Source of the DNA: Trueperaceae bacterium
GTDB lineage: Bacteria > Deinococcota > Deinococci > Deinococcales > Trueperaceae
Assembly (NCBI GenBank): GCA_030147925.1
Contig: JASBUK010000016.1
Coordinates: forward strand, 15,713 to 79,712
Direction: 5' to 3'
DNA length: 64,000 nt
In this document: in pieces, positions 4,729-60,487 of the stretch
Layout of the letters: each line of letters starts with the position of its first letter
Position numbering within the stretch: position 1 is the stretch's first letter
Notes under the pieces: model-generated
Seen by the model: only the letters and a program-made list of their open reading frames with translations
What the model was told of the DNA's origin: nothing
Database searches by the model: none
Position numbers and translations under genes: made by a program

Positions 4729-4760
4729 ATTTGGCGGCATATCACAAATTGTGTTGATAG

Positions 4761-4825
4761 TCAGTGGTGGGTGGTAGGTAGTAGGTGGTCAGCAGGAAAA
4801 TCTTCACTTTCTACTTTCCCCTTTC
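4761..4825 (-). repeat. intergenic repeat family, short copy A
   Basis: Its reverse complement, 'aaggggaaagtagaaagtg...ccacctactacctaccacccaccactgac', matches both arms of the long copies at 35990 and 38752. It abuts the pgl stop codon. Confidence 0.7.
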
Positions 4826-5516
4826 ATAATTCTAAGTCCGTTAACCAGATAAGTTGCTCCTTGGCAGTTATGGCCTGAGCCGGATAACGCTTTGGATCGC
4901 GTGGCCCATGCAATGTCTGCACAAGCGCTTCGCGCTTTTTCTCACCGGAGACCAAAAAGGCCACTACACGCCCCAGGCTTAAAGTTTCAGCGTTTAAGCT
5001 AAGACGTATCGCCCCAGAGCTCCTAATTTGACTGACCACGGTCATATCTGTGGCCTCTATGATCTTGCTGTCGGGAAATAGACTGGCGGTGTGTGCATCT
5101 TCGCCCAGACCCAAAAAAATCAGATCGAACTTTGGCTTGGGGCCAAGAACGGTTCTGATGGTGTGAGCGTATTGTCTGGCCGCTGCTTGCGGTTTTTGAG
5201 CCAGATAGGGCCAGGGGTGAATCTGTTTGCCGGGGATCGCAACCGCCTCCAGAAGCGCTTTTTTGGCGGTTCCGTAATTGCTGTCCGGATGTTCAAAAGG
5301 GACAAAGCGCTCATCTCCCCAAAAAACTACGGTTTTGTCCCAGGGAATACCGCTTGCCTTTACCAGGTATTCGTACATGGTTAAAGGAGTGCTGCCACCT
5401 GAAAGAACGACATTGAAGCGTCCACTTTGAGCGACGCTTTGCTTAGAGCTAGCAATAAACAGTTCGGCAGCGGCGGCAGCAACCGAAGTAACGGTTCTTA
5501 ATTCAGCAGAAGACAT
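4824..5516 (-). CDS. pgl: 6-phosphogluconolactonase
   Basis: Motifs 'LSGGSTP', 'FWGDERFVP' and 'LGLGEDAHTASLFP'. Confidence 0.85.
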   Translation of the reverse strand: MSSAELRTVTSVAAAAAELFIASSKQSVAQSGRFNVVLSGGSTPLTMYEYLVKASGIPWDKTVVFWGDERFVPFEHPDSNYGTAKKALLEAVAIPGKQIHPWPYLAQKPQAAARQYAHTIRTVLGPKPKFDLIFLGLGEDAHTASLFPDSKIIEATDMTVVSQIRSSGAIRLSLNAETLSLGRVVAFLVSGEKKREALVQTLHGPRDPKRYPAQAITAKEQLIWLTDLEL

Positions 5517-5595: not shown

Positions 5596-6183
5596 ATGAC
5601 ACCCGCACGTACAGATGCCTATAAACTAATGACCGAATGGACGCTCTCTGACAGCCTCAGAAAGCATATGCTGGCCGTAGAAGCGGCGGTGAGCGCCTAT
5701 GCCCGCAAATATGGTGAAGATGAGGAGCGCTGGGCGGTGACAGCCCTGTTGCACGACTTTGATTACGAAAAATATCCTCATATTGGCGAGCAAGGACATC
5801 CTTATGTGGGCGTCGCTTATTTGCGTGAGCAGGGTTACCCTGAAGATATTTTAACCGCCATTCTCGGCCATGCCGATTTTACCGGGGTAGCGCGTGAGAG
5901 CCTGCTGGCCAAAACTCTTTATGCCTGTGATGAAATTACCGGACTGATTACGGCGGCGGTGCTGGTGCGGCCTGATAAAAATATTGCCAATCAGACCGTT
6001 AAGAGTTTAAAGAAAAAATTTAAAGACAAGGCCTTTGCCCGGGGTGTGAACCGGGAGGATGTGCGCCGTGGTGCCGAGGAACTAGGGGTTGAACTGTGGG
6101 AGCATATAGCCTTTGTGCTTGCGGCCATGCAGGATCAAGCCGAAACTTTAGGGCTTGACGGTAAGCAGGCTGCTACGGATTGA
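5596..6183 (+). CDS. HD-domain metal-dependent phosphohydrolase
   Basis: 'LLHDFDYEKYP' H..HD motif in a 195-aa protein. Confidence 0.7.
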   Translation: MTPARTDAYKLMTEWTLSDSLRKHMLAVEAAVSAYARKYGEDEERWAVTALLHDFDYEKYPHIGEQGHPYVGVAYLREQGYPEDILTAILGHADFTGVARESLLAKTLYACDEITGLITAAVLVRPDKNIANQTVKSLKKKFKDKAFARGVNREDVRRGAEELGVELWEHIAFVLAAMQDQAETLGLDGKQAATD

Positions 6184-6808
6184 TTGTTAGCAGGGTTTCT
6201 GTTCGGCGTAAAATTCGCCAGTTCCAGTACCAGTGACCCTGACTATTGCGTTTTAACGGCGGCCAAAAAACTGCTGCCGCCCGCCCGGCAATTGTGGCGC
6301 TGGCAATAGGGCCGAAGTTGCGCGAATCGACGCTGCCCAAAGGGCCGCGGTTGTCGCCTAAGACAAAGACGTAGCCTTTAGGTATGGTTAGATCGAGCAT
6401 CGAACTGCTACCACGCCAATTGTCCCCCAGATATGACTCAGCAAGCGCTTGATCGTTGAGATAGACCGTTCCCTGATCGATGCGCACGCGGTCTCCCGCT
6501 ATTGCAATGATACGCTTTATAAAGAAGCGGCGGTAGCTCAGCCCCAGTAGCGGCAAACGCTCACTGGCCCCGGTAGCACCTGCCGGTGGGCGAAAATAAA
6601 CGATGTCGCCACGCCTAAAATTGCCCAGACCCAGCCGGTGCAGCCAGGTCTCGTATTTAGGGACGATGACCCGCTCGCCACTTTGCAAAACCGGTGCCAT
6701 TGAATCGCCGGAAATGCCTACTGTAGTAATGCCAAAGGTGACTACCAGCACGGCGAGGATAATACCTTCTAGCAGTGGAAGCAACTGTCGCCGTAATTTT
6801 AGTAGCAC
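6173..6808 (-). CDS. lepB: signal peptidase I
   Basis: 'GDSMAPVL' catalytic-Ser box, 'KRIIAIAGD' Lys box, 'GDNRGPLGSVDSRNFGP'. Confidence 0.85.
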   Translation of the reverse strand: MLLKLRRQLLPLLEGIILAVLVVTFGITTVGISGDSMAPVLQSGERVIVPKYETWLHRLGLGNFRRGDIVYFRPPAGATGASERLPLLGLSYRRFFIKRIIAIAGDRVRIDQGTVYLNDQALAESYLGDNWRGSSSMLDLTIPKGYVFVLGDNRGPLGSVDSRNFGPIASATIAGRAAAVFWPPLKRNSQGHWYWNWRILRRTETLLTINP

Positions 6809-9470: not shown

Positions 9471-11165
9471 TTAATCTGTCACCGCGCCCTTAGAAGCGCT
9501 TGAAACCAGCTTGGCGTACTTGGCCAGCACACCGCTCTGATACTTTATCGGCGGGGCTTGCCACTCAGATTGCCGCCGGGCTAAGTCCTCGTCGCTTATG
9601 TTGACTTGCAAGAGGCGCTGCTCGGCGTCCAAGGTGATGCTATCGCCTTCTTTAACGAGCGCAATGGGGCCGCCTACTTGTGCCTCGGGTGCCACATGAC
9701 CCACCACCAGACCGTAAGTGCCGCCGGAAAAACGCCCATCGGTAATCAGACCAACCGAGTCGCCTAAGCCCTTACCGATAATGGCGCTGGTGGGCGAGAG
9801 CATTTCGCGCATGCCGGGGCCACCCCGCGGGCCTTCGTAGCGGATGATGATGACGTCTCCCGCCCTGATTTTGTCGGCCATGATGGCGGTCATGGCTTCT
9901 TCTTCGGATTCAAACACCCGGGCCGGACCGGTCATCTTGATGGACTTAAGACCGCTGATTTTGGCCACGCTGCCTTCCGGTGCCAGATTGCCGCGCAAAA
10001 TTGCCAAGTGACCCTGCGGGTATTTGGGCTGCGTAAACGGCAAGACCACATCCTGGTCAAGTGGAGGAGCGCTTGCTACGCTGGCTAAGTTTTCCGCCAC
10101 AGTTTTGCCGGTGACGGTCAGGCAGTCGCCGTGCAGTAGCCCGGCGTTTAAGAGCATCTTCATGACCAGCGGAATGCCGCCGACGCGGTGCAAGTCAGTA
10201 GCAACGTATTTGCCGGAGGGTTTTAGATCGGCAAAGTGTGGCACCTTTTCGCGGATGCGCTCAAAGTCATCGAGGTTTAAGTCAACCCCAGCCGCATGAG
10301 CAATCGCCAGCAAATGCAAAACAGCGTTGGTGGAGCCGCCCACGGCCATGATCACGGCAATACCGTTCTCAAAGGCTTTTTTGCTCAAGATGTCGCGGGG
10401 TTTAAGGTCGTTTTCGATGAGGCTTAGCAGCGCACGACCACTTTCAGCAGCACTGTCGGCCTTTTCTTGATCTTCGGCGGCTATGGTCGAAGAATAGGGC
10501 AAGCTCATACCCATTGCTTCAAAAGCACTGGACATAGTGTTGGCGGTGTACATACCGCCACAGGAGCCTTTGCCGGGGCAGGCCCGCCGTTCAATCTCTT
10601 TGAAGGTCTCTAGGGCTATGCGTCCGGCATTATATTCGCCGACGGCTTCAAAGGCGCTGACTATGGTTAAGTCCTCACCCTGATAGTGGCCGGGTTTGAT
10701 GGTGCCACCATAGACAAAAATGCTGGGGATGTTTAAGCGGGCCATGGCAATCATGGCGCCGGGCATGTTTTTATCGCAACCACCTACGGCAATGAGTCCG
10801 TCCATGCTCTGACCGCGGCAGACGGTTTCGATTGAGTCGGCAATCACTTCGCGGCTTACCAAGCTGCACTTCATGCCTTCGGTGCCCATGGAGATGCCAT
10901 CGGAAATGGTGATGGTGCCAAATGTCTGCGGCATGCCACCGGCAACGCGCACGGCTTGTTCGGCGCTTGTCGCCATATCACCCAGACCAGCGTTGCAGGG
11001 TGTGATGGTGCTGTGGCCGTTGGCAACGGCGATGATCGGTTTGCCGAAATCCTCATCCTCAAAACCAACGGCCCGCATCATGGCGCGGTTGGGTGCGCGG
11101 CTATCGCCTTCGGTTACGACGCTGCTGCGCCGGTTGAGTTTGACTTTGCTAGCTGTGTCGCTCAT
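9471..11165 (-). CDS. ilvD: dihydroxy-acid dehydratase
   Basis: 564 aa with 'GGCDKNMPG', '[15 protein letters not shown]' and 'TDGRFSGGT'. Confidence 0.95.
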
Positions 11166-11766: not shown

Positions 11767-13290
11767 CTAGTCAATTTCCCCGTCCTCTTCAGAATCCACC
11801 CGGCGAATTACGGTATAGCGGGCAACAAGCGTGGGCAGGAACAAGCTGGCCAGCGCCAAAATCCAAATACCGATAGCCAGCGGGCTGCTGAATAACACAG
11901 TCCAATCGCCGCCGCTAAGCGACAGCGCACGGCGCAGATTTTTTTCCATGAGTGGACCCAGCACCAAGCCTAAAATCACTGGCGCCAGCGGGAAACCCGT
12001 TTTGCGCATGGCATAGCCGACAAGGCCAAAGCCCGTCATCAGCAGCAGATCAAAAGGACTGTTGTTAACCGCGTAGACCGCGATAAAGCTAATTGCTGCA
12101 ACCGCCGGCAATAAAAACCAACGGGGGACGCTGAGAATCCTGACAAAAAGGCCTACTAAGGGCAAATTTAGCAAAAGCAGCATCAGATTGCCAATATACA
12201 TAGAGGCCACCAGACCCCAGAAAATCTGCGGATTATTGGCAATGAGCAACGGTCCTGGTGTGATATTCATGCCCAGGAGAGCGCCGAGCATGACGGCGGT
12301 GGTCCCGCTGCCAGGCACACCCAGAGTTAACAGAGGAATCATGGCGCCATTGGCGGAGGCGTTATTGGCTGATTCGGGGGCGGCTACTCCGCGAATATCG
12401 CCTCGGCCAAAGCTGTTTTGCCGATCAACAAGACGTTTTTCGGTGGTATAGGAAACAAAGCTGGCGATGGTGCCACCGGCCCCAGGCAAGACGCCGATAA
12501 AAAAGCCAATGACACTACCCCGCACCATGGTCCAGAGGGATTTTATGAATTCTCGACTCGAAATCATGACACGGCCCAGAGCAGATTTAACCTGTTGACC
12601 TTTGCTGCTTTCTTCGAGAATCTGGATAACTTCGCTGATGGCAAAAAAGCCTATGGTGACAACCACAAAATCCATGCCGTCAAAGAGTTTTAGTTCGCCA
12701 AAGGTATAGCGCGCCACGGCACTGTTGGGGTCAAGGCCGACGGTAGCCAGCATCAGGCCGAATGCCGTAGAGATGAGCGCCTTGGCGAGATTGGCGCCGG
12801 CAAGGCTGGAAAGCGTGGAAAAGGCAAAGACCATCAGTGCGAAATATTCAGCCGGCCCAAAGCGAATCGCCCACTGCGAGAGCAATGGAGCAAAGAGCAT
12901 CAAAGCAATAACGGATACTGTGCCGCCAAAAAAGGAAGCGATGGCGGACATAGCCAATGCCGGGCCTGCCCGCCCTTTTTTAGTCATGGCGTAGCCGTCG
13001 ATAGCGGTTACTACCGCCGAAGCGGTGCCTGGCACATTGAGCAAAATGGTGCTGATGGAATTACCGTACTGTGAGCCGTAGTAAATACCGGCAAACAGAA
13101 TGAGTGAGGATTCGGGCGGCAAACCGAGCGCAAAGGTAACAGGGATTAGTATGGCGATGCCATTTATTGGGCCGATGCCGGGAAGCATTCCAACCAGAGT
13201 GCCCAAAAAGACTCCGACAAAAGCCAGCAAGATGTTAATTGGTTGTAAGGCGATGGCAAAACCTTGAGCCAGCAGACTAAAGACTTCCAT
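11767..13290 (-). CDS. tctA: tripartite tricarboxylate transporter, large permease
   Basis: 507-aa polytopic protein with 'GMLPGIGP' and 'GVLPGAGGTIASF'. It sits next to tctB and tctC. Confidence 0.85.
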   Translation of the reverse strand: MEVFSLLAQGFAIALQPINILLAFVGVFLGTLVGMLPGIGPINGIAILIPVTFALGLPPESSLILFAGIYYGSQYGNSISTILLNVPGTASAVVTAIDGYAMTKKGRAGPALAMSAIASFFGGTVSVIALMLFAPLLSQWAIRFGPAEYFALMVFAFSTLSSLAGANLAKALISTAFGLMLATVGLDPNSAVARYTFGELKLFDGMDFVVVTIGFFAISEVIQILEESSKGQQVKSALGRVMISSREFIKSLWTMVRGSVIGFFIGVLPGAGGTIASFVSYTTEKRLVDRQNSFGRGDIRGVAAPESANNASANGAMIPLLTLGVPGSGTTAVMLGALLGMNITPGPLLIANNPQIFWGLVASMYIGNLMLLLLNLPLVGLFVRILSVPRWFLLPAVAAISFIAVYAVNNSPFDLLLMTGFGLVGYAMRKTGFPLAPVILGLVLGPLMEKNLRRALSLSGGDWTVLFSSPLAIGIWILALASLFLPTLVARYTVIRRVDSEEDGEID

Positions 13291-13746
13291 CTAGACCCCT
13301 AAAAAGCTAAATATTCGACCAGTGGGCAGGCCGAGCTCGAGCCCAAAGGCAAAGAGCGCATACATCACCAGGCTAAAGAGCAGCGCGGCCATAAGACTTC
13401 TTAGCGGCGGTCCCCTAAAGATCAGCGACAGCGATGCGAGCTCTAGGGTAGTGGCGAGGATAAACCCCAATGGCACCAACATATAGGCATAAGCAACAAA
13501 GCTTATGACAACAAGAATAATGCGCAGCCAGACGCTAAAGGGCGGCCAAGTGGGACCTTCGTCTGGCTTGAAGATTAAATAAAGGCTGCTAAGCCCCATA
13601 AACACCGCCAAAATAAAAGGGAAGGCTTTGGGGCCGACGGGGTCGGCAATAAAATTCACGTTGAAACTGCGGGCGGTAAGACCGTACCAACTGGCAAAGA
13701 TCAGCAGTAAAACACCGGCGATCCGGTCACTTAAGCGTTGAGACAT
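13291..13746 (-). CDS. tctB: tripartite tricarboxylate transporter, small membrane subunit
   Basis: Small four-helix membrane protein between tctC and tctA. Start moved to ATG 13746. Confidence 0.6.
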   Translation of the reverse strand: MSQRLSDRIAGVLLLIFASWYGLTARSFNVNFIADPVGPKAFPFILAVFMGLSSLYLIFKPDEGPTWPPFSVWLRIILVVISFVAYAYMLVPLGFILATTLELASLSLIFRGPPLRSLMAALLFSLVMYALFAFGLELGLPTGRIFSFLGV

Positions 13747-14887: not shown

Positions 14888-15856
14888 TTAGGGTGTAAGC
14901 AGCACCTTACCGCTGCTTTTACGGCTCTCTACCAGCGCCTGGGCTTTTGCGGCTTGCTCGAGCTTAAAGCTGGCGCCAATAAGCAAGCGCAGACGCTTTT
15001 CGGCGAGAAGCTTCAAAACGGCCTCGGCGCTTTGTTGCAAAATCTCAGGATAATGTTTGCGGTAGCCGCCGCTGCTATAACCCAGTACCGCCCGGTTTTG
15101 GCTGTGTAACTGTTTGCTGTCGAACTGGGCCGCGCCCGCACCGGTGTGTCCAAAGATGACCAGGCGCCCAAAGGGTGCTAAGCAACTCATACCTTTTTCG
15201 GCGGTTTCTCCGGCTATCGAGTCAAGAATGAGGTCAGCGCCGTTGCTACTTATTTCAAGCACACGTTGGGCAAAGTCTTCCTGGCGGTAGTTGATGACCT
15301 CATCGGCACCCAGTTCGCTTACCAGGGCTTTTTTAGCCTCGCTACCCACGGTGGTTAAGACGCGCCCAGCCCCAAGAACCTTAGCTAGCTGAATGAGGCT
15401 GCTGCCTACGCCCCCGGCCCCCGCATGAATTAGCACTGTTTCGCCTTTTTGCAGCCTGCCAGCCAGTGTCAGCAGGTTGTAGGCGGTGATAAAAATGCCG
15501 ATGCCTGCACCTTGCTCAAAACTAACGGTCTCAGGCAGCAAAAAGCACAAATTTTCTTCGGCCAAGACCTTCTCGGCATAAGCGCCACCCGTAGTGTAAG
15601 CGGCTACTCTTTGCCCCAGCTTAAGACTCTGCACACCAGAACCAAGAGCCGTAATAACACCGGCGGCATCGAGACCTGGGATAAACGGGGGCTCGTAGTT
15701 TTTGTAGCCGCCCCGCCTGGCCTTGATGTCGGCAAAGTTGACGCTGGAACAGCGTGTCTCAATTACAACTTGCCCCTCGTCGGGAATCGGGTCTGTGACA
15801 CTCTCATAAACCAACTGCTCGGGACCTCCGTGATGGTGCACCACAACGGCGTTCAT
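14888..15856 (-). CDS. NADPH:quinone oxidoreductase / zeta-crystallin-type MDR
   Basis: 'VNFADIKARRGGY' and 'HAGAGGVGS' Rossmann motif. ATGA overlap with the upstream gene. Confidence 0.8.
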   Translation of the reverse strand: MNAVVVHHHGGPEQLVYESVTDPIPDEGQVVIETRCSSVNFADIKARRGGYKNYEPPFIPGLDAAGVITALGSGVQSLKLGQRVAAYTTGGAYAEKVLAEENLCFLLPETVSFEQGAGIGIFITAYNLLTLAGRLQKGETVLIHAGAGGVGSSLIQLAKVLGAGRVLTTVGSEAKKALVSELGADEVINYRQEDFAQRVLEISSNGADLILDSIAGETAEKGMSCLAPFGRLVIFGHTGAGAAQFDSKQLHSQNRAVLGYSSGGYRKHYPEILQQSAEAVLKLLAEKRLRLLIGASFKLEQAAKAQALVESRKSSGKVLLTP

Positions 15857-18951: not shown

Positions 18952-20667
18952 TTAAACAGCATTTGTGCCAGATGCGCCCCCGGTTCCTGCCATTCCCCCT
19001 ACACCGAACTGACTTAGGCCGATATCTATCTCTTCGTCTGTCAATTCTCTGTCACGCCTGAAAAACCTTACCTCCTTGTCTTTCAAAATTTTGAAGTAAC
19101 TGTCATTATCAAGACAAGATTTATCTAAACCAAGCCATCCCTCTAAAGCACATTCATAAAATAGCAACCAATTGTCACTATAGAGTAACCTTGCAAGCCA
19201 AGCATCATTATTTTCTCCGCTTTGACTGGCTAAATCTTTTTTCCAATCTTCAGAAGCTAGTTCAGCAATAGAACCCGAGTCGTGAAGATTAAGCGCTAAT
19301 AGTCTGACGATAGGATTTGAACTTTTTTGGATATTGAGAACCGCTTGAGTGTCGATACGAACGTCTAATACTTGGGCGAGCCACAGACCCCATGCTAGCT
19401 CAAAATCACACTGAAATGGCGTTTGCGCTAAAAAGATATTTACGGCTTCTTTGAATGTTTTTAGAGGGAATCCTTTACGTTTGTACCACACTAAAATGTC
19501 GTGAATGAGGATAATGGTATCTGGGCGCTTTAACAGAGTTTGAGACAAAACTGCTTCTAAGAATTCCCACTCCCGTGAATTACCCTCTTTAATTTCTACA
19601 TACTTGAGATTCCTGCGATTAGCATAGGGCCGAATTATTTGCAGTGCATACTTGAGCACACTACTTGTTGGTGACGATTTCTGTATTTCAAATGCTTTAG
19701 TGAAAAAGTGTCTTAACTGGTCATAAATTCTGTTTTCGAAGTTGAAAGTGGCTAATTCAAAGGTCCACGGTGTTTTAAATGGTTCAGGAAGCTCGGCAAT
19801 ATGTGTTTTTATCTCGTTAATCTGAAGATGGTATTCATTTGCAATGACATGCAATGCTTCCAAAATATCTTGGGCATGTTTTTTCTCTGTCACGTAGAAT
19901 GCCATGTCGTCAACATGTCGATATGCTTTACAGGAAAAATTGAACCCCTTTAATTTCTGCTCTAGTAAACGGTCAATTTCTGCGCCAATTATTTCTGCAA
20001 TTACTAGAGAGGTGTCGGGGCCAACTGGTATTCCTTTTGTTTCTGCCTCTTTGGTATTTCGTAGTAGTTTGTCCAATTCTTTCCCTATTCCCTGTAAATG
20101 TGATGTGGTAGGGGAACTACTGGATTTTCGGTCGGCTTTAACTTTTTCCTTTCCAATGAAGGCCCACTCAATTGAATGAGTGTAGATAGAGTTGTAGAAG
20201 GATTGCAAATCAACATGCAATACATATTTTGCACAGGCAGTATAATGGATGCGGTAGTCATCCAGATTTTTGTGTTCCTTAACAGGACGAAGATAGCGCC
20301 TACACTTTTCATCAACGATTGGTGTACTGAGTGAAATTGGTGAAGTATTCAAATGATGAGTAATGTCAATCCATTTGTCGCAAACATATTGTGTTAAATA
20401 AGCTTGGTGTACAGGGTTAGTTAAGTGTGTAAGTCTGCGTGCGTGTACACCCTTAATAATACTGTACGTTACAGGTTTACTGGATTCTCTTGGACGTTTG
20501 GGTTTCTTACTATTTGGCCACTCACCCAGAATTTTGGTGATATTTATAGTGAAGGAATCGGTCGAAAAACATGGTGGAAGCCCATTGGGAAAGTAGCCGT
20601 ATTTTAACCAAAGCTCTAAGTTGACAGAATGTGAAGCTTTTAATGATTGAGGAGGATTAGGTGGCAA
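18952..20667 (-). CDS. Abi/UG-class (defence-associated) reverse transcriptase, stand-alone
   Basis: RT motifs in order: 'IIKGVHARRLTHLTNP', 'VLHVDLQSFYNSIYTHSIEW', 'GIPVGPDTSLVIAEI', 'YRHVDDMAFY' (Asp codons 19906-19911) and 'LQINEIKT'. The C-terminal ~280 aa look helical, and the tail 'GVGGMAGTGGASGTNAV' is Gly-rich. TTG start with AAGGA 9 nt upstream. About 35% GC against ~55% in the flanks. Confidence 0.85.
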   Translation of the reverse strand: MPPNPPQSLKASHSVNLELWLKYGYFPNGLPPCFSTDSFTINITKILGEWPNSKKPKRPRESSKPVTYSIIKGVHARRLTHLTNPVHQAYLTQYVCDKWIDITHHLNTSPISLSTPIVDEKCRRYLRPVKEHKNLDDYRIHYTACAKYVLHVDLQSFYNSIYTHSIEWAFIGKEKVKADRKSSSSPTTSHLQGIGKELDKLLRNTKEAETKGIPVGPDTSLVIAEIIGAEIDRLLEQKLKGFNFSCKAYRHVDDMAFYVTEKKHAQDILEALHVIANEYHLQINEIKTHIAELPEPFKTPWTFELATFNFENRIYDQLRHFFTKAFEIQKSSPTSSVLKYALQIIRPYANRRNLKYVEIKEGNSREWEFLEAVLSQTLLKRPDTIILIHDILVWYKRKGFPLKTFKEAVNIFLAQTPFQCDFELAWGLWLAQVLDVRIDTQAVLNIQKSSNPIVRLLALNLHDSGSIAELASEDWKKDLASQSGENNDAWLARLLYSDNWLLFYECALEGWLGLDKSCLDNDSYFKILKDKEVRFFRRDRELTDEEIDIGLSQFGVGGMAGTGGASGTNAV

Positions 20668-35989: not shown

Positions 35990-36150
35990 AGGAGAAAGTA
36001 AAGAGACAGTAAAAAGGGGAAAGTAAAAAGTGGTTGGTGGGGGGTAGAAACCCAGTGGTGGAAATTTCTGAAAAAGACTATTCCTATCCACCACTTACTA
36101 CAAACTACCTACTACTCACCACCTACCACTGACTTCTCTATTCTTCCACC
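35990..36150 (+). repeat. intergenic repeat family, long copy B
   Basis: Left arm 'ggagaaagtaaagagacagtaaaaaggggaaAGTAAAAAGTGGttggtgg', right arm 'ttcctatCCACCACTTACTACAAACTACctactactcaccacctaccactgac'. The arms are imperfect inverted repeats. Confidence 0.8.
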
Positions 36151-36243
36151 TTTGATGGTGCCATTTGAAGCTGCGCGGGGTGCGCACGCGTGGTTGAGGC
36201 TTCACAGCCTCATTTTATGTTACGGGGCTTTAAGCGTCCAGTT

Positions 36244-38068: not shown

Positions 38069-38692
38069 TCAGCAATGCTCTTTTTTGAGATGATCCCGGG
38101 AACGTTCTGGGTTTATGTCGCTCGGCTGATTGATGTTGGTAAATAGAGAGCCGCCAAAGCGCCGGATGACTTCTTGGCGGTCAATTATCTTTGCTGCTGC
38201 TTTGCGGGCGATTCGCCCCATGGAAAGCTCACTGCTGCTTAACTGCGCTTTTACTAAAGGCAGTACGCTCTTGTGATAAAAAGCGGCTAAGGGCTCGAGC
38301 TTATCTTCATCATCACCAACCATAACCACAGCTGCGTTACCACGTTTCTTAAAGAGATAATCCCAATAATCACGACTGAGGCAAGGCAAATCACAGGCAC
38401 TTAGCGCCAGCCAATCATAGCGGGCATGTACCAAAGCCGTGTGCAAGCCACTTAAGCTGTCACCCCCGGGGATGATATCGGCATAAATCGGCACCTTAAA
38501 CTCGGGGTAGGGCTTATTGGCCACAATAAAACGCTCTCCAGCGCCCGCTAAACTCTCCAGCACCCAAGCCAGCAGGGGTTTGCCCTTATAGCGATAGTAT
38601 GCCTTGTCACCACCAAAGCGCTTGGCCTGGCCACCGGCTAAGATGGCCGCGCTAAATTTTTCTTTATCTGATGACTTGCTCTTTACAGACAT
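38069..38692 (-). CDS. mobA: molybdenum cofactor guanylyltransferase
   Basis: 'AILAGGQAKRFGGDKA' N-terminal motif, 207 aa. Confidence 0.75.
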   Translation of the reverse strand: MSVKSKSSDKEKFSAAILAGGQAKRFGGDKAYYRYKGKPLLAWVLESLAGAGERFIVANKPYPEFKVPIYADIIPGGDSLSGLHTALVHARYDWLALSACDLPCLSRDYWDYLFKKRGNAAVVMVGDDEDKLEPLAAFYHKSVLPLVKAQLSSSELSMGRIARKAAAKIIDRQEVIRRFGGSLFTNINQPSDINPERSRDHLKKEHC

Positions 38693-38751: not shown

Positions 38752-38926
38752 GGGTGTGAGTAGTTTGTAGTAGGTGGTGGGTAGGAATTAGCCCTTCTAG
38801 AAAGTCTCCCTGCTTTTTTGATTAGGGGTTAACTGATAGATTCCCGGTGCCTGATTTTGCCACCACTGGAAAATTCCTAGTTTCTACCTCCTACTAACCA
38901 CTTTTTACTATCCTCTTACTTTCTCC
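38752..38926 (-). repeat. intergenic repeat family, long copy C
   Basis: Its reverse complement carries 'AGTAAAAAGTGGttagtaggaggtagaaac' (12-mer at 38898-38909) and 'ttcctacCCACCACCTACTACAAACTAC'. Only 2 mismatches in 28 nt against copy B's right arm. Confidence 0.8.
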
Positions 38927-39370
38927 TTACGATGTTGTGGCAATCAATTCCCGCACTTTGTTAAGGGCTTCGTCAATTCCCCGCTGCGCTAGAGCCGAGA
39001 CTGTCTCGCCAAGCTCAAAATTCTCAGCGGGCAGCACCAGCCAATAGGCTTTAGGGTGACGGCCATAAAGGGTCTGTGCCAGAAAAAGCAGTCGGCCCGG
39101 ATTGGCACTGTGCGTCGTGGTTGCGCCGCTGTCCTCTGGAGCCAGGGCATGAACTTGCACTTGCTTAAGAGGCTGAGCGCCGGCATCGACAAAGATGGCT
39201 AAGTCAACTTCCGAGAGTGCTGGGGCTAAATCCGGCGTTAGCTGGTGAAGCGAGCGTGTCTCCACTTGAGACAAGCCCCAGGCGGCTACGCTATCCGCCA
39301 CTTTGCGACCCGCGCCGTCGTCGCTGCGCAGGTCGTTGCCATAGCCAATCAGCAGGATGGGTTTTGTCAT
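38927..39370 (-). CDS. hoxW: hydrogenase maturation endopeptidase
   Basis: 'LLIGYGNDLRSDDGAG' motif. Start moved to ATG 39370 (MTKPILL). Confidence 0.8.
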   Translation of the reverse strand: MTKPILLIGYGNDLRSDDGAGRKVADSVAAWGLSQVETRSLHQLTPDLAPALSEVDLAIFVDAGAQPLKQVQVHALAPEDSGATTTHSANPGRLLFLAQTLYGRHPKAYWLVLPAENFELGETVSALAQRGIDEALNKVRELIATTS

Positions 39371-39401
39371 ACCAATGGTCCCGTACTTTAGTCTAATCTG
39401 T

Positions 39402-40850
39402 CTAGTCTCGCCAGGTCTCGTTGAGAATGTCACCGCTACTGCTGAGCACTTGCACATGCAAAGGCATCTGGCCCACGGCATGGGTCGAGCAACTCAAGCA
39501 AGGGTCAAAGGCGCGAATGCCTGCCTCGACGCGGTTGAGCATCCCTTCGCTAATTTCCGGGCTTTGGATGTATTCTTGGGCGATCTGCGTTACCGTGCGG
39601 TTCATGGCCAGGTTGTTTTGTCCGGTGGCTATGATCAGATTGACCTTTTCAATAAGACCGTTTTCATCGACGTTGTAGTGATGGAACAAAGTACCCCTGG
39701 GTGCTTCGCTGACGCCGACGCCCTCAAGCTGGTTGATACCTGCTTCGGCCCTGACGCGGGTATGCAGAATATCAGGGTCGTTTAAGAGGTTTTCAACGCG
39801 CTCGGTGGAGGCCAGAATTTCGATAAGTCGGGCATAGTGATAGAAAAACGATGACCTGGCAATGCCACCGGCGCGGTCCCGGAACTCGCGCAATTCTTCG
39901 TCGGCTAAAGGCGTACCCATGCGCTCACAAATATTGAGTCGCGCCAGCGGCCCGACCCGGTATATACCCGCTTCCTCCGCTTTGCCTTCGCTGCTGCTTT
40001 CATCGACATAGGGCCGGTAATAAGGTGATTTGAGATATGAAGAAGACTGAACCGCCTCACCAATATAGCTCTGATAATCATCAGGCTTAAGCTGGTCGGC
40101 CACGATTTTGCCGTCGCTGTCTCCAAAGCGCAATTTGCCGTCGTAGTGTTCCCACATACCGTCAGGAGTGACTAAGCCCATAAAAAGACTGGCAAAGTTG
40201 CCAAAGGAAGCCACTTCGGTAGGGAAGTCATCCAAGAGCTTCTTAAAGAGCTCGAGCGCAGTTGTAATCGTGGCTCGAGCCTCAGGTACTTTGGCCAGTA
40301 TTTCCTTGAGAGAATCCTCAGACAGAGGCTCGCGCACGCCCCCGGGCACAGTCCAGGAGGGGTGTATCTTTTTACCGCCCAAGTGCTCGATAATCTCCTG
40401 ACCAAACTGTCTTAGGCGAATGCCTTTGCGGGTTAGTTCTGAATCGGTGGCCATTAAGCCAAAGACATTGCGTCCAACTGGGTCGCTGTCCATGCCCAGC
40501 AGCAAATCTGGAGCGCTTAAGTGGAAAAAGCTCAGCGTATGGGATTGGATGATTTGCCCTAAGTTCATCAGGCGGCGCAGTTTGGCGGCGGTCGGGGGAA
40601 TTTTGACCGACAAAATAGCGTCCCCGGCTTTAGCCGAGGTCAGCAGGTGACTCACCGGACAGATGCCGCAGGTACGAGCGGTGATACCGGGCATTTCCCA
40701 GAGGGGCCGACCTTCGCAGAATTTTTCGAAGCCCCTGAATTCGGTGACGTGAAAGCGCGCGTGATCCACCTTGCCGTCGTCTTTAAGAAAGATGGAAATT
40801 TTGGCGTGACCCTCGATGCGGGTAACGGGGTCGATGACAATTTGTTTCAT
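39402..40850 (-). CDS. hoxH: NAD-reducing [NiFe] hydrogenase large subunit
   Basis: 'RIEGH', 'CGICPVSH', and the C-terminal 'DPCLSCSTH'. Confidence 0.9.
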
Positions 40851-51600: not shown

Positions 51601-51830
51601 AAAAGGAAAGTAATTAAGACAGTGAAAAGTAGAAAGTAAAAGGTAAAAAGTGGAAAGTAAAAAGCAGAAAGTAGTTAGTAGAAGGTAGGGATTTTCCAGC
51701 TCTGGCGAGAATCAGACAATGGGAGTTTGTTGTTTTAACCCCTCACGCCTCACACCTAACACCTCACTTTGTAGGAATGCTTTCTTAAAAAAACGCTTTT
51801 TCCACCCACCACTCACCACAAACTTCTCTT
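51601..51830 (+). repeat. intergenic repeat family, long copy D
   Basis: 'agtgaaaagtagaaagtaaaagGTAAAAAGTGGaaagtaaaaag...ggtagggattttccag...ttaacccct...tttttCCACCCACCACTCACCACAAAC', collinear with the reverse complement of copy C. Confidence 0.75.
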
Positions 51831-51940
51831 TAGCTTTTTAACGAAATCGGTATGAGATGCTCGCAACTCCTTATAATTCCGTATTTCAAGATGTGGCCTT
51901 CTATAAAGAGGACATAAGCAGACCCGAGTATGCTGGCGAT

Positions 51941-52441
51941 ATGATTCGTACAGCGATTTTGACGGTGAGTGATAGGGGCTCGAGCGGTCAACGTGTGGAT
52001 ACGACCGTTTCAGAACTGCGAACTTTATTAAGCCAGGGGCCATTTAGCGAAGTTGACTACCAGATTGTCCCTGACGAACAGGCCATGATTCGCTCAAAGC
52101 TGAGAATCTGGGCCGAAGGCGATGCCGTAGACCTGGTGCTGACCACCGGGGGGACGGGTTTGTCCCTGCGGGACCGCACTCCGGAGGCTACCCGGGAGGT
52201 CATAGAACGCGAGGTGCCGGGTTTAGCCGAACTGATAAGGCTGACCGGCATGCAAAAAAACCGCAAGGCGGCACTGTCGCGTGCGGTTGCCGGTGTGAGG
52301 CGGCATACGCTCATTGTCAACTTGCCGGGAAGCCCCAAGGGTGCCAGGGAGTCGTTAGAGGCAATCATCGGGATTTTGCCACATGCAATTGACACTATTG
52401 TGGGTGAAAAGCGTAGCGCCCCACAAGACTGGCATCATTGA
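51941..52441 (+). CDS. mogA: MogA/MoaB-family molybdopterin adenylyltransferase
   Basis: 'ILTVSDRG' and 'LVLTTGGTGLSLRDRTPEA'. Start moved to ATG 51941. Confidence 0.8.
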   Translation: MIRTAILTVSDRGSSGQRVDTTVSELRTLLSQGPFSEVDYQIVPDEQAMIRSKLRIWAEGDAVDLVLTTGGTGLSLRDRTPEATREVIEREVPGLAELIRLTGMQKNRKAALSRAVAGVRRHTLIVNLPGSPKGARESLEAIIGILPHAIDTIVGEKRSAPQDWHH

Positions 52442-53050: not shown

Positions 53051-53098
53051 CTGCTTTTGACTGTCACGCGGGCGGTGTAATACAAATGTTGTGTCAAG

Positions 53099-53235
53099 AG
53101 GAAAGTGAAAAGTAAAAAGTGGTAAGGAAATGATGAGGAACGGGAAAAAGAGGGGCGAGGATTGTGGAGCGCGAAACTTTTGTCCCCTTATCCTCGTTCC
53201 TTCTTGTAGGGAGTGGGGAGTGGACGCTTTCTTTC
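53099..53235 (+). repeat. intergenic repeat family, partial copy E with its own hairpin
   Basis: 'ggaaagtgaaaAGTAAAAAGTGGtaagg' (12-mer at 53111-53122), followed by the inverted repeat GAGGAACG...CGTTCCT. Confidence 0.6.
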
Positions 53236-57592: not shown

Positions 57593-57699
57593 AGCTAGAT
57601 CCTCCGCTTTATCGTTCGTTGGCTATTTTAAAAACGCTTCCCCGACCCAAGTATAGGCGAGATGATGTGAATCCTCTGAAAGCTGCTTTGCAGAAAAGG

Positions 57700-57790
57700 G
57701 CCGAGGAAAGATGAAAGATCAGGGTTTAGGGTAAAGGGAAAACCCCAACCCCTATTTTCTCCCTTGCTCTGACTTCTCTTCTTCAGCTTG
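57700..57790 (+). repeat. possible degenerate member of the intergenic repeat family (copy F)
   Basis: A purine-rich 'gaggaaagatgaaag' region and '...ctgacttctcttcttc', which resembles the end of copy B. The match is weak. Confidence 0.3.
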
Positions 57791-59855: not shown

Positions 59856-60107
59856 ATGGAAGATGCCATAACAACCAGAATTGGTGACAATGGCAGATTT
59901 GTCATTCCCAGTGAAATCAGAAAACAGTTAAAACTACGCGACGGTGACCGAGTCCAGGTGGGTATTCAGGATGGGAAAATCGTTATTTATACGGCAGAGG
60001 CGCTCTTAGCGGAATTTTACGGACTCACTCGCAATGTCAGGTCTGCTGATGTAGATGTTGTGCAAGAGCTTATTGACGAGCGCCGCCAGGAAGCCGCCAG
60101 CGAATGA
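59856..60107 (+). CDS. vapB: AbrB/SpoVT-fold antitoxin
   Basis: 'GRFVIPSEIRKQLKLRDGDRVQV' looped-hinge-helix motif. 4-nt overlap with the downstream PIN gene. Confidence 0.8.
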   Translation: MEDAITTRIGDNGRFVIPSEIRKQLKLRDGDRVQVGIQDGKIVIYTAEALLAEFYGLTRNVRSADVDVVQELIDERRQEAASE

Positions 60108-60487
60108 CGGTATTAGATGCGAGTGCCCTTATCGCCCTCGCCAGACAAGAGGCCGGGGCGTTAGCAGTAGCCCAAAAGCTCGGCTCGAGCCACGTGAGTG
60201 CTGCAAACGCCAGCGAGTTCATTCGGAAACTCGAGCAGTATGGCGATGATGGTGAACGGGCCTTTGAAAAGCTCGAGCAAATTGGCCTGACTTTACACGA
60301 AATAGAACGAGTCGACGCTTATGAAGCAGCGGCAATCTACCGGACCACCAAACCTTTCGGACTCTCTCTAGGCGACAGATTTTGTTTGGCCTTAGCCAGG
60401 CGTACCGGTGCGGAGGTTTACACTGCCGACATAGCTTGGCTAGACGTGGCCGATGAGCTAGGTCTTGAAATTCATGCCATTCGCTAA
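60104..60487 (+). CDS. vapC: PIN-domain toxin
   Basis: 'VLDASALIAL' first acidic motif, and 'TADIAW' near the C-terminus, 127 aa. Confidence 0.8.
   Translation: MTVLDASALIALARQEAGALAVAQKLGSSHVSAANASEFIRKLEQYGDDGERAFEKLEQIGLTLHEIERVDAYEAAAIYRTTKPFGLSLGDRFCLALARRTGAEVYTADIAWLDVADELGLEIHAIR

Follow-up and report, generated by a model that had tools for sequence, protein, structure and literature searches.

The 64,000-nucleotide stretch analysed here (the window; positions 15,713 to 79,712 of contig JASBUK010000016.1 from a Trueperaceae bacterium) has a GC content of 52% and belongs to a Truepera-like genome. The TrpB encoded beside one of the elements described below is 80–84% identical to Trueperaceae and Deinococcota proteins (80% to that of Truepera radiovictrix), and MoaB agrees with this assignment. 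A cyanobacterial source, which the STRR-like appearance of the arrays and the frequency of the palindrome GCTCGAGC had brought to mind, was rejected on these protein relationships. Six intergenic spacers carry elements A to F (Table 1), which an initial annotation made from the sequence alone grouped into one dispersed repeat family with purine-rich and C-rich arms. Copy A lies between convergent glgP-like and pgl genes, and copy B occupies the whole 148 nt from a trp leader peptide to trpB. The left array of copy C begins immediately after the stop codon of the open reading frame (ORF) at 38927–39481, which is the end of a hox-type NiFe-hydrogenase cluster, and its right array is about 60 nt upstream of a mobA-like gene (38069–38692). 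Copy D is in the spacer between the divergent sucC and moaB genes. As had been described, the genes around the elements are convergent (A), tandem (B, C and E) or divergent (D and F), and all six elements are intergenic; the small ORFs that cross the copies are all shorter than 50 aa.

We show below that A to D form one homologous, multi-copy family whose arms are inverted arrays of degenerate 7-nt units, and that similar arrays of unrelated sequence occupy spacers of related genomes. We consider it reasonably probable that A to D are lineage-specific, mosaic, non-coding intergenic repeats built of inverted heptamer arrays, and that they are part of a wider class present in a subclade of the Trueperaceae.

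The arms are tandem arrays of seven-nucleotide units

The arms consist of tandem, degenerate 7-nt units with the consensus GTRRRWR on the G-rich strand, a feature overlooked in the initial annotation. A self-match scan using sliding 42-nt windows, lags of 5 to 11 and a cut-off of at least 0.60 yields 71 windows at lag 7, located in A (array at 4750–4801), B, D and F, and none at lags 5, 6 and 8–11. Among the 29 spacers of at least 40 nt, the long spacers rich in period 7 are exactly the six singled out earlier, and seven other long spacers of the window have no period-7 signal. Tandem Repeats Finder (TRF) reports nine copies of AAAGTAG with a period of 7 at 51626–51688 (a stretch also scored as period 21), 3.9 copies of CCTCACA at 51741–51767 (a CCTCACN array held within the core of D), an AAAGTGA array at 53102–53121, and a period of 14 at 36090–36126. 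When the G-rich strand is followed from the outer ends towards the centre, the two arms resolve into 43 units starting with GT, nearly all 7 nt apart and nearly devoid of C. The units stand head to tail, as in heptameric simple sequence repeats (SSRs) and short tandemly repeated repetitive (STRR) sequences, and are degenerate, not exact (73–85% matches).

Within a copy, A-rich purine heptamers (GTAAAAA, GTRGAAA) are followed by G/T-rich heptamers (GTGGTTA GTAGGAG GTAG), the centre GGGATTTTCC, and the inverse C-rich array (CCACCAC CTACTAC AAACTAC). An optional core sits at the centre and is 33–107 nt long across the copies, and about 80–107 nt in C and D, where it reads ..CCAG...TGGC..AATCAG.CA..GGGA......TTAACCCCT..; the core of B is the same segment with an internal deletion, and core-less copies have one GGGATTTTCC at the centre. 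Short direct repeats border the core in D (TTTTCC ... TTTTCC, 51690–51697 and 51798–51805) and in C (TTTTCC ... ATTCC, 38868–38875 and 38783–38790). The core would be either a nested insertion with a 5–6-nt duplication or a segment that is lost through recombination between the bordering repeats.

The arms have a fixed polarity. The G-rich arm is 5' and the C-rich arm 3' in all 11 two-armed elements, which by symmetry is true of both strands. These are A, B, C, D and F of the window together with elements from related genomes, whose loci were taken around TrpB and MoaB homologues and are labelled L0xx (two in L027, two in L028, one in L033 and one in L037).

Table 1. Coordinates of the repeat elements and of the trp leader peptide in the window
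Feature	Coordinates	Strand	Description
Copy A	4759..4831	-	Short core-less form: A-rich purine array, GATTTTCC centre, CCACC/CTAC-type array; profile E=2.3e-4
Copy B	35990..36146	+	Left purine heptamers 35990-36051, truncated core 36052-36088, right C-rich array 36089-36146
Copy C	38752..38927	-	Left array 38878-38927, core about 38786-38877, right array 38752-38785
Copy D	51604..51830	+	Left array 51622-51695 (10 in-phase GT-heptamers), core 51696-51805, right array 51800-51830
Element E	53091..53130	+	Related A-rich GT-heptamer array only; exact 11-mer; profile E=2.2
Element F	57689..57790	+	Same architecture, not a family member; period-7 maximum 0.67; no profile match
Trp-rich leader peptide ORF	36116..36205	-	..RTPRSFKWHHQRW-KNREVSGRW and stop, upstream of trpB; last 9 codons and stop inside copy B

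Four of the six elements are homologous

Copies B, C (in reverse) and D are homologous over their whole length, with insertions and deletions; the pairwise local scores are 90.5 for B–C, 77.5 for C–D, 51 for B–D and 43 for B–A. A profile built from B, C and D also finds A, reaches E only at a weak score (Table 1), and does not detect F. The grouping of six related spacers thus holds for A, B, C and D, but E has only a heptamer array and F is an unrelated single copy, made of telomere-like G-rich heptamers (GGGTTTA GGGTAAA GGGAAAA) followed by C-rich ones (CCCCAAC CCCTATT). The same profile matches B on the opposite strand (E=3.2e-5), showing that the inverted symmetry proposed for the arms is real.

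Several details reported earlier stand. The 11-mer GTAAAAAGTGG is exact at 36023(+), 38898(-), 51643(+) and 53112(+), reading and aligning the spacers confirms the CCACCAC..TACTACAAACTAC arm for B, C and D, and the internal block common to C and D is recovered by pairwise alignment. Allowing at most one mismatch, GTAAAAAGTGG has 6 matches against 1.2 expected, a number reached in none of 100 shuffles. The similarity is not confined to low-complexity runs, as B, C and D align through non-repetitive segments of the core. The motif CAGTGGTGG is found in A, B and C only (3 occurrences against 0.36 expected); a Chi-like role for it was considered on account of this confinement and set aside for want of further support.

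In agreement with the initial annotation, none of the copies contains the octamer palindrome GCTCGAGC. This HIP1-like octamer has 61 sites in the window against 1.4 expected (e.g. 576, 654, 1346 ... 62784), and is also present in L027 and L033.

Copy number, mosaicism and variation between strains

The whole window is contained in a sediment-metagenome run (X1), and a marine run (X2) contains a strain about 90% identical; a search for RNA runs containing the organism found none. Copy number was estimated by placing X1 contigs on the copies at an identity of at least 80% and summing contig depth. Copy C attracts 43 X1 contigs, 2 of them at 99% identity or above, 3 at 95–99%, 17 at 90–95% and 21 below 90% (most at 80–95%), and the depth over 38877–38909 rises to 761 against a baseline of 12.2. 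At copy D the depth peaks at 209 in the left arm and 234 in the right arm against 10.6, or about 20-fold, and the core is at 35–60, or 3- to 5-fold. The arms of B are at 7- to 9-fold, A at about 4-fold and F at 1-fold, and E is at about 2-fold over its array and about 3-fold over 53147–53201. These X1 contigs have the same depth (10–13) as the window's own contigs and are therefore taken to belong to the same genome, which contains roughly 40–60 copies of the best-conserved segment. The X2 strain is also multi-copy at D (peaks of 76–165 against 4.9), and nothing corresponding to F is found in X2. The copies in X1, and the many in the X2 strain, establish the dispersed, multi-copy, non-coding intergenic repeat that was first proposed from the window alone.

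The copies are mosaic. Some of those in X1 omit the core (a jump from 51672 to 51785 in D) and have GAGGGCT, AGGGTTTTCCCACCA or CAGGGATTTTCC as the joint at the centre. X1 contigs terminate inside copies, and the loose ends of other copies are ragged, starting and stopping at different heptamers. The different depths of arms and core, together with the core-less forms, show that the family is modular and that arms and core vary independently. The segment adjoining E (53131–53235) is a different, low-copy hairpin module, and the E module also accompanies other array copies.

Comparison with X2 shows variation within the arrays at fixed positions. Copies A, B and D are kept at orthologous sites; the X2 orthologue spans A and carries a 7-nt insertion (AGTTGGG) behind 4779, and the orthologous B has a different array to the left of 36084. 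Copies C and D also differ by one heptamer (GAAACTA). The 7-nt insertions and deletions in A of X2 and between C and D show unit-wise slippage directly, and unit number varies between related strains, as it does in SSR and STRR arrays. Because B and D are at the same loci in X2, there is no turnover of location at about 10% divergence, and no precise excision or insertion allele of the A–D family was seen in the spacers compared (X2 and relatives).

The family appears restricted to this lineage. The arm pattern TTCC N1-4 CCACCACNNACNACAAACT gives only three chance hits (SAR86, Singulisphaera and Clostridia) in 185,579 GTDB species representatives, and a core pattern gives 23 hits in JGI metagenome contigs, all of them chance and none flanked by arrays. 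Judged by a single arm pattern and a single core pattern, the sequence family is absent from GTDB representatives and JGI contigs, and it is absent from Rfam.

Related genomes have the same architecture with other sequences

In L027 (GC 0.56) and L028 (GC 0.49) the spacers likewise give a signal at lag 7 only. Their units differ from those of the window (CCCTAAC/CCCCAAC, AGTCCTT/ACTAAAA, and GCAGAAG with TTCGTTA), and GTGAAAAGTAAAAAGT is common to L028 and the window. L029, L030, L032, L033, L035 and L037 have little or no lag-7 signal by the strict criterion. The B/C/D profile has no significant match in any relative examined, and the exact 11-mer GTAAAAAGTGG is in none of 37 loci.

The spacer between sucC and moaB, which is divergent and syntenic in all relatives examined, illustrates the relationship. 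It is 147 nt long and free of arrays in L035 and L036. In L033 and L034 it is 323 nt and contains GGGGTGA TGGGGAG CAGGGGA... followed by CCTATCT CCCCATC TCTCTAC...; in L037 it is 268 nt and contains GGCAGGG GTCGGGG ATTGGGG ... AAATCCCGACCTCTGCC; and in the window it is 442 nt and contains copy D. These arrays are alike in position and architecture and unrelated in sequence, which tracks genome GC.

Sister elements with pronounced hairpins are present in two relatives. L027 has a 184-nt nested heptamer hairpin at 6182–6365 between trpB and trpA (-64 kcal/mol, z -5.0). The two genes overlap in the window and in L028, an arrangement that represents the empty site corresponding to this filled one. 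In L028, homologous elements composed of a purine array and a hairpin are found at 1728–1824 and 13249–13338 (z -3.0 and -3.8), and differ by compensatory arm changes (TTATTCGTT/AACGAATAA against TTGTTCGTT/AACGAACAA), which suggests that the stem is maintained in this sister family. The L027 hairpin also contributes an AGGAG Shine-Dalgarno sequence for trpA, and TGA is present at both of its junctions.

The orientation of the arrays follows the neighbouring genes. The G-rich strand is the non-coding strand upstream of ORFs and the coding strand after stop codons in all six window elements and in five two-armed elements of the relatives, which follows automatically from the way two-armed elements are polarised. 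On the sense strand, single arms before trpB, argG, clpP and L030:8475 are C-rich; those of L027 before trpB and argG are CCCTAAC/CCCCAAC/CCCTAGC arrays. A universal G-poor leader before every gene was considered and rejected, as only 6 of 29 spacers carry arrays.

A candidate Trp attenuator upstream of trpBA

The Trp-rich leader peptide adjoining copy B (Table 1) has counterparts in the relatives, with the core (R/I)RT(P/K)R(S/T/A)(F/Y)KWHHQ(R/H)W(W)(R) before the stop codon kept upstream of trpB in L027 (about 4750–4810), L028 (about 9800–9868), L030 and L032. A small hairpin, CACCA-nnnn-TGGTG, has the Trp codons of the leader as its 3' half, and in L030 and L032 it is followed by a U-run. 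From these sequence features the leader and its hairpin look like a minimal Trp attenuator of trpBA in the Trueperaceae clade. In the window the leader has lost its own stop, the ORF continues for 9 codons into the G-rich arm of B, and there is no U-run after the hairpin. The trp leaders of L027 and L028 also carry heptamer arrays, with sequences different from that of B.

Structure, signals and mobility

The initial annotation anticipated a long hairpin in each copy. Copy B alone folds clearly better than shuffled sequences, and A and D fold no better than theirs: the RNA z scores (+/- strand) are -2.55/-3.04 for B, -2.51/-0.82 for C, +0.67/-0.25 for D and -1.16/-1.16 for A, with -1.26 for E and -1.06 for F. 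As single-stranded DNA, B has a z score of -1.13. RNAalifold on A to D gives only 9 pairs at -2.8 kcal/mol, and no shared structure. Rfam has no matches over the window at the gathering threshold, and E-value mode on C and D returns only spurious ones. Scans with promoter and terminator consensus sequences find nothing within the copies, with counts at or below shuffle expectation and no U-tracts. The small RNA (sRNA), terminator and structured-RNA roles first suggested thus find no conserved structure, promoter or terminator signature, or Rfam match. C and D, the only window copies with a full core, both point to molybdenum-cofactor (Moco) genes (mobA-like and moaB), and a Moco riboswitch was considered; Rfam is negative even in E-value mode and the arrangement was left as a coincidence.

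The suggestion of a transposable element of the miniature inverted-repeat type (MITE) fares no better. No direct repeat of at least 4 nt was found near both ends of B, C or D, and A has trivial 4-mers only. No terminal inverted repeats are shared, with the first and last 40 nt scoring 5–11 against each other and reflecting heptamer phase only. Pfam scans of all 58 main ORFs of the window reveal no transposase, integrase, Y1 transposase (Y1_Tnp) or REP-associated tyrosine transposase (RAYT), and the ends of the copies are ragged. The elements also depart from repetitive extragenic palindromic (REP) sequences and bacterial interspersed mosaic elements (BIMEs), in having arms of 35–95 nt with many internal GTAG/GTGG sequences instead of a 20–40-bp palindrome with a single GTAG/CGTC tag and a RAYT.

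G4Hunter scores are 1.24 for A and 1.40 for B, no higher than those of many coding segments, and the left arms of C and D have nothing above 1.2. Among relatives of higher GC content, G-rich arms give the top scores of their loci (2.16, 2.44 and 2.04). G-quadruplex formation as a property common to the family was rejected on the low scores in the window.

Relation to described repeats

The closest counterparts of the arrays are two heptameric G-rich SSRs, GGGAATC in Xanthomonas and GGGGA(C/T)T, known classically as the STRR1 heptamer, in Nostoc (Rehm et al. 2015, PMC4692102; Mrazek 2007, as cited in PMC4679880). These are enriched in spacers, and their G-rich strand is the non-coding one upstream of ORFs and the coding one immediately past a stop; they occur between the same gene pairs in related genomes while varying widely in length and sequence, have no association with insertion sequences (ISs) and no known function, and include some inverted pairs able to form stem-loops (PMC4692102). 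The A–D family resembles them in its tandem 7-nt units, its strand rule and its persistence in the same spacers with variation in length and sequence. It differs in that its units are highly degenerate and mostly too G-poor for G-quadruplexes, in that two inverted arrays and a unique core are copied as a composite unit, and in its Deinococcota host.

Within the phylum, the small noncoding repeats (SNRs) of Deinococcus radiodurans are described as 295 copies of at least 9 types, mosaic, and absent from D. geothermalis (PMC1978522, citing Makarova et al. 1999). The two are alike in being small, intergenic and modular or mosaic, in numbering tens to hundreds of copies, and in being lineage-specific, with the A–D family absent from relatives at 83% TrpB identity. 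Likewise, neither is known to have a function or mobilising enzyme, the comparison of A–D with SNRs being one of descriptions. Like SNRs, the A–D family thus comprises small, mosaic intergenic repeats present in many copies in a Deinococcota genome. The arm pattern has no genuine match in the GTDB representatives, a collection expected to include D. radiodurans. To our knowledge, SNRs have not been described as heptamer arrays.

TAACTGA heptamer direct repeats are found in marine Beggiatoaceae, Cyanobacteria and Bacteroidetes, and have been proposed as binding sites of a translational regulator (MacGregor 2015, PMC4679880). They too are intergenic heptamers, often in one orientation directly upstream of starts, like the single C-rich arms of L027, L028 and L030 and the arm of B before trpB. 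Unlike the A–D family, they repeat a single exact heptamer in short direct arrays that lack both an inverted partner and a core. REP sequences and BIMEs are GTAG-tagged palindromes mobilised by RAYT transposases (PMC3733652, PMC3333891), and Nezha is an example of a bacterial MITE (PMC3184786). Both classes are broadly similar to the A–D family in being extragenic, palindromic and multi-copy, with species-specific sequences and long and short mosaic forms, and GTAG recurs in the A–D arms. However, a REP is a single 20–40-bp stem-loop with one terminal GTAG, and a MITE combines sharp terminal inverted repeats with target duplications and a partner IS. The impression that the family was undescribed is therefore correct for its sequence, which is new, but not for the kind of element, which is already described in Xanthomonas, Nostoc and D. 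radiodurans.

Other features of the window

The ORF at 18952–20667 (-) encodes a 571-aa reverse transcriptase of the defence-associated type (PADLOC Drt6, E=1.6e-132; Drt4, E=9e-126), and lies in a low-GC stretch (0.46) between an aminotransferase gene and leuB. The moaB ORF next to copy D (51857–52441) has 194 aa from its first ATG compared with 166 aa in all homologues, placing the real start downstream. It is likely to be at 51941, or possibly at the GTG at 51893, given the protein-level conservation of DVAF(Y/H)K.. in L037. At 59856–60487 there is a VapBC-like toxin–antitoxin pair, in which the ORF of a MazE/AbrB-type antitoxin (83 aa) and that of a PIN-domain protein (127 aa) overlap.

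Discussion

We propose that the arrays would lengthen, shorten and diverge through 7-nt slipped-strand events; slipped-strand mispairing is the explanation offered for heptamer SSRs generally, as Mrazek (2007) is cited in PMC4679880 and PMC4692102. The composite unit has been copied to about 40–60 unrelated intergenic sites in this genome, and also in its close relative, without target-site duplication, presumably by recombination or gene conversion between arrays or by some form of non-autonomous transposition. Each genome of the subclade would have its own heptamer 'dialect', with like arrays in the same spacers. The element is most likely mostly selfish or near-neutral DNA whose orientation would be filtered by selection on the neighbouring genes, leaving the sense strand G-poor upstream of starts and G-rich just past stops. 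Single copies may have incidental effects in cis, such as the hairpin of B within the trp leader, and the family is probably not a dedicated sRNA, terminator or riboswitch.

Several points weigh against this proposal. Its copy number comes from summed contig depth in a metagenomic run, and only four copies are readable in full. Recurrence in the same spacers and invariant polarity across the dialects could mean functional selection and not neutrality, and B, which lies in a regulatory leader, is predicted to fold significantly better than shuffles on both strands. These last observations bear on a more radical idea, that the inverted arrays are a clade-wide system under functional or mechanistic constraint instead of ordinary selfish repeats. 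Its basis is that the polarity is constant in at least five genomes and that the trp leader and the sucC–moaB spacer are occupied repeatedly. The arrays may serve as cis-acting insulators or as leader modules, retained at their positions as concerted evolution turns over their sequence. Alternatively, the polarity may be the footprint of the generating mechanism, a telomere-like scar of break healing, in which both 3' ends at a chromosomal break would gain G-rich heptamers and then be joined; this would leave the order flank, G-rich array, C-rich array, flank, and some units do resemble TTTAGGG/TTAGGGG. We give this idea little chance of being right.

Among the alternatives, a hairpin of the REP/BIME kind that acts in cis as RNA or DNA, be it a 3'-end protector, factor-dependent terminator, insulator or leader/attenuator, accords with the positions of A, C and E, which start 0–73 nt past stop codons, and with that of B, which fills the trp leader with a stem beginning within the leader ORF. 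The folding of B on both strands and of the plus strand of C, the near-perfect hairpins of the sister elements in L027 and L028 with the compensatory changes in the latter, and the reappearance of arrays in the same spacers of different genomes also argue for it. Rho loading sites resemble the C-rich, G-poor arms, which counts in the same direction. We nevertheless regard it as rather unlikely, since neither A nor D outdoes its shuffles in folding, C does not stand out either on its gene-sense strand (z -0.82), no shared structure, U-tract or terminator enrichment emerges, D and F lie between divergent genes and so have no 3' end to act on, and the element in X2 is conserved no better than the spacer around it. 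Quite unlikely, in our view, is a classical MITE, an IS deletion derivative moved in trans by an IS transposase that recognises its terminal inverted repeats and duplicates its target. The size of 73–230 nt, the inverted symmetry, the tens of intergenic copies with unrelated flanks, the long and short forms, and the filled and empty trpB–trpA site of the L027 sister element are all as such an element would have them, but end repeats of at least 4 nt are missing at B, C and D, the likeness of the termini is one of heptamer phase, the other copies have ragged ends of variable length, the 64 kb encode no transposase, integrase or Y1 transposase, and B and D are retained at their orthologous sites in X2.

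The arrays might instead act at the DNA level, as G-quadruplex or i-motif formers or as phased protein sites in which GTR is recognised every 7 bp. The strict periodicity and a super-period of 21 bp, or two turns of the helix (period 21 in TRF, with spacings of 14 and 21), speak for this, as do the peak G4Hunter scores of G-rich arms in the higher-GC relatives and a strand rule shared with the G4-forming heptamers of Xanthomonas and Nostoc (PMC4692102). With G4Hunter scores of only 1.24–1.40 for the window family, a commonest unit (GTAAAAA) that cannot form G-tetrads, and no candidate binding protein known, the chance that this is correct is very slight. Finally, it is extremely improbable that the elements are a chance likeness of low-complexity purine runs or a family of trans-acting sRNA genes. 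The arms are compositionally biased, and E and F resemble the family in composition and periodicity only; however, chance similarity is refuted by the alignment of B, C and D through their non-repetitive cores, by the restriction of CAGTGGTGG to A, B and C, and by dozens of X1 copies at 80–95% identity, and an sRNA family is contradicted by the lack of a promoter, terminator, conserved fold or Rfam match.

If A to D are mosaic heptamer repeats as proposed, a Deinococcota lineage joins the few bacteria with heptamer-colonised spacers (Xanthomonas, Nostoc and Beggiatoaceae). Here the arrays would move together as one inverted composite, with or without a core, and would persist at orthologous spacers as their sequence is replaced by the dialect of each genome. 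The repeats also have a practical consequence, in that they break short-read assemblies of the source organism. Copy B sits in a previously unnoticed candidate Trp-leader attenuator of trpBA and thus may affect gene regulation. Two features deserve to be followed, namely that the G-rich then C-rich polarity is invariant across unrelated dialects and that the same spacers are occupied repeatedly, and the family offers a tractable case for asking why 7-nt units dominate bacterial SSRs and why strand orientation follows the neighbouring genes.

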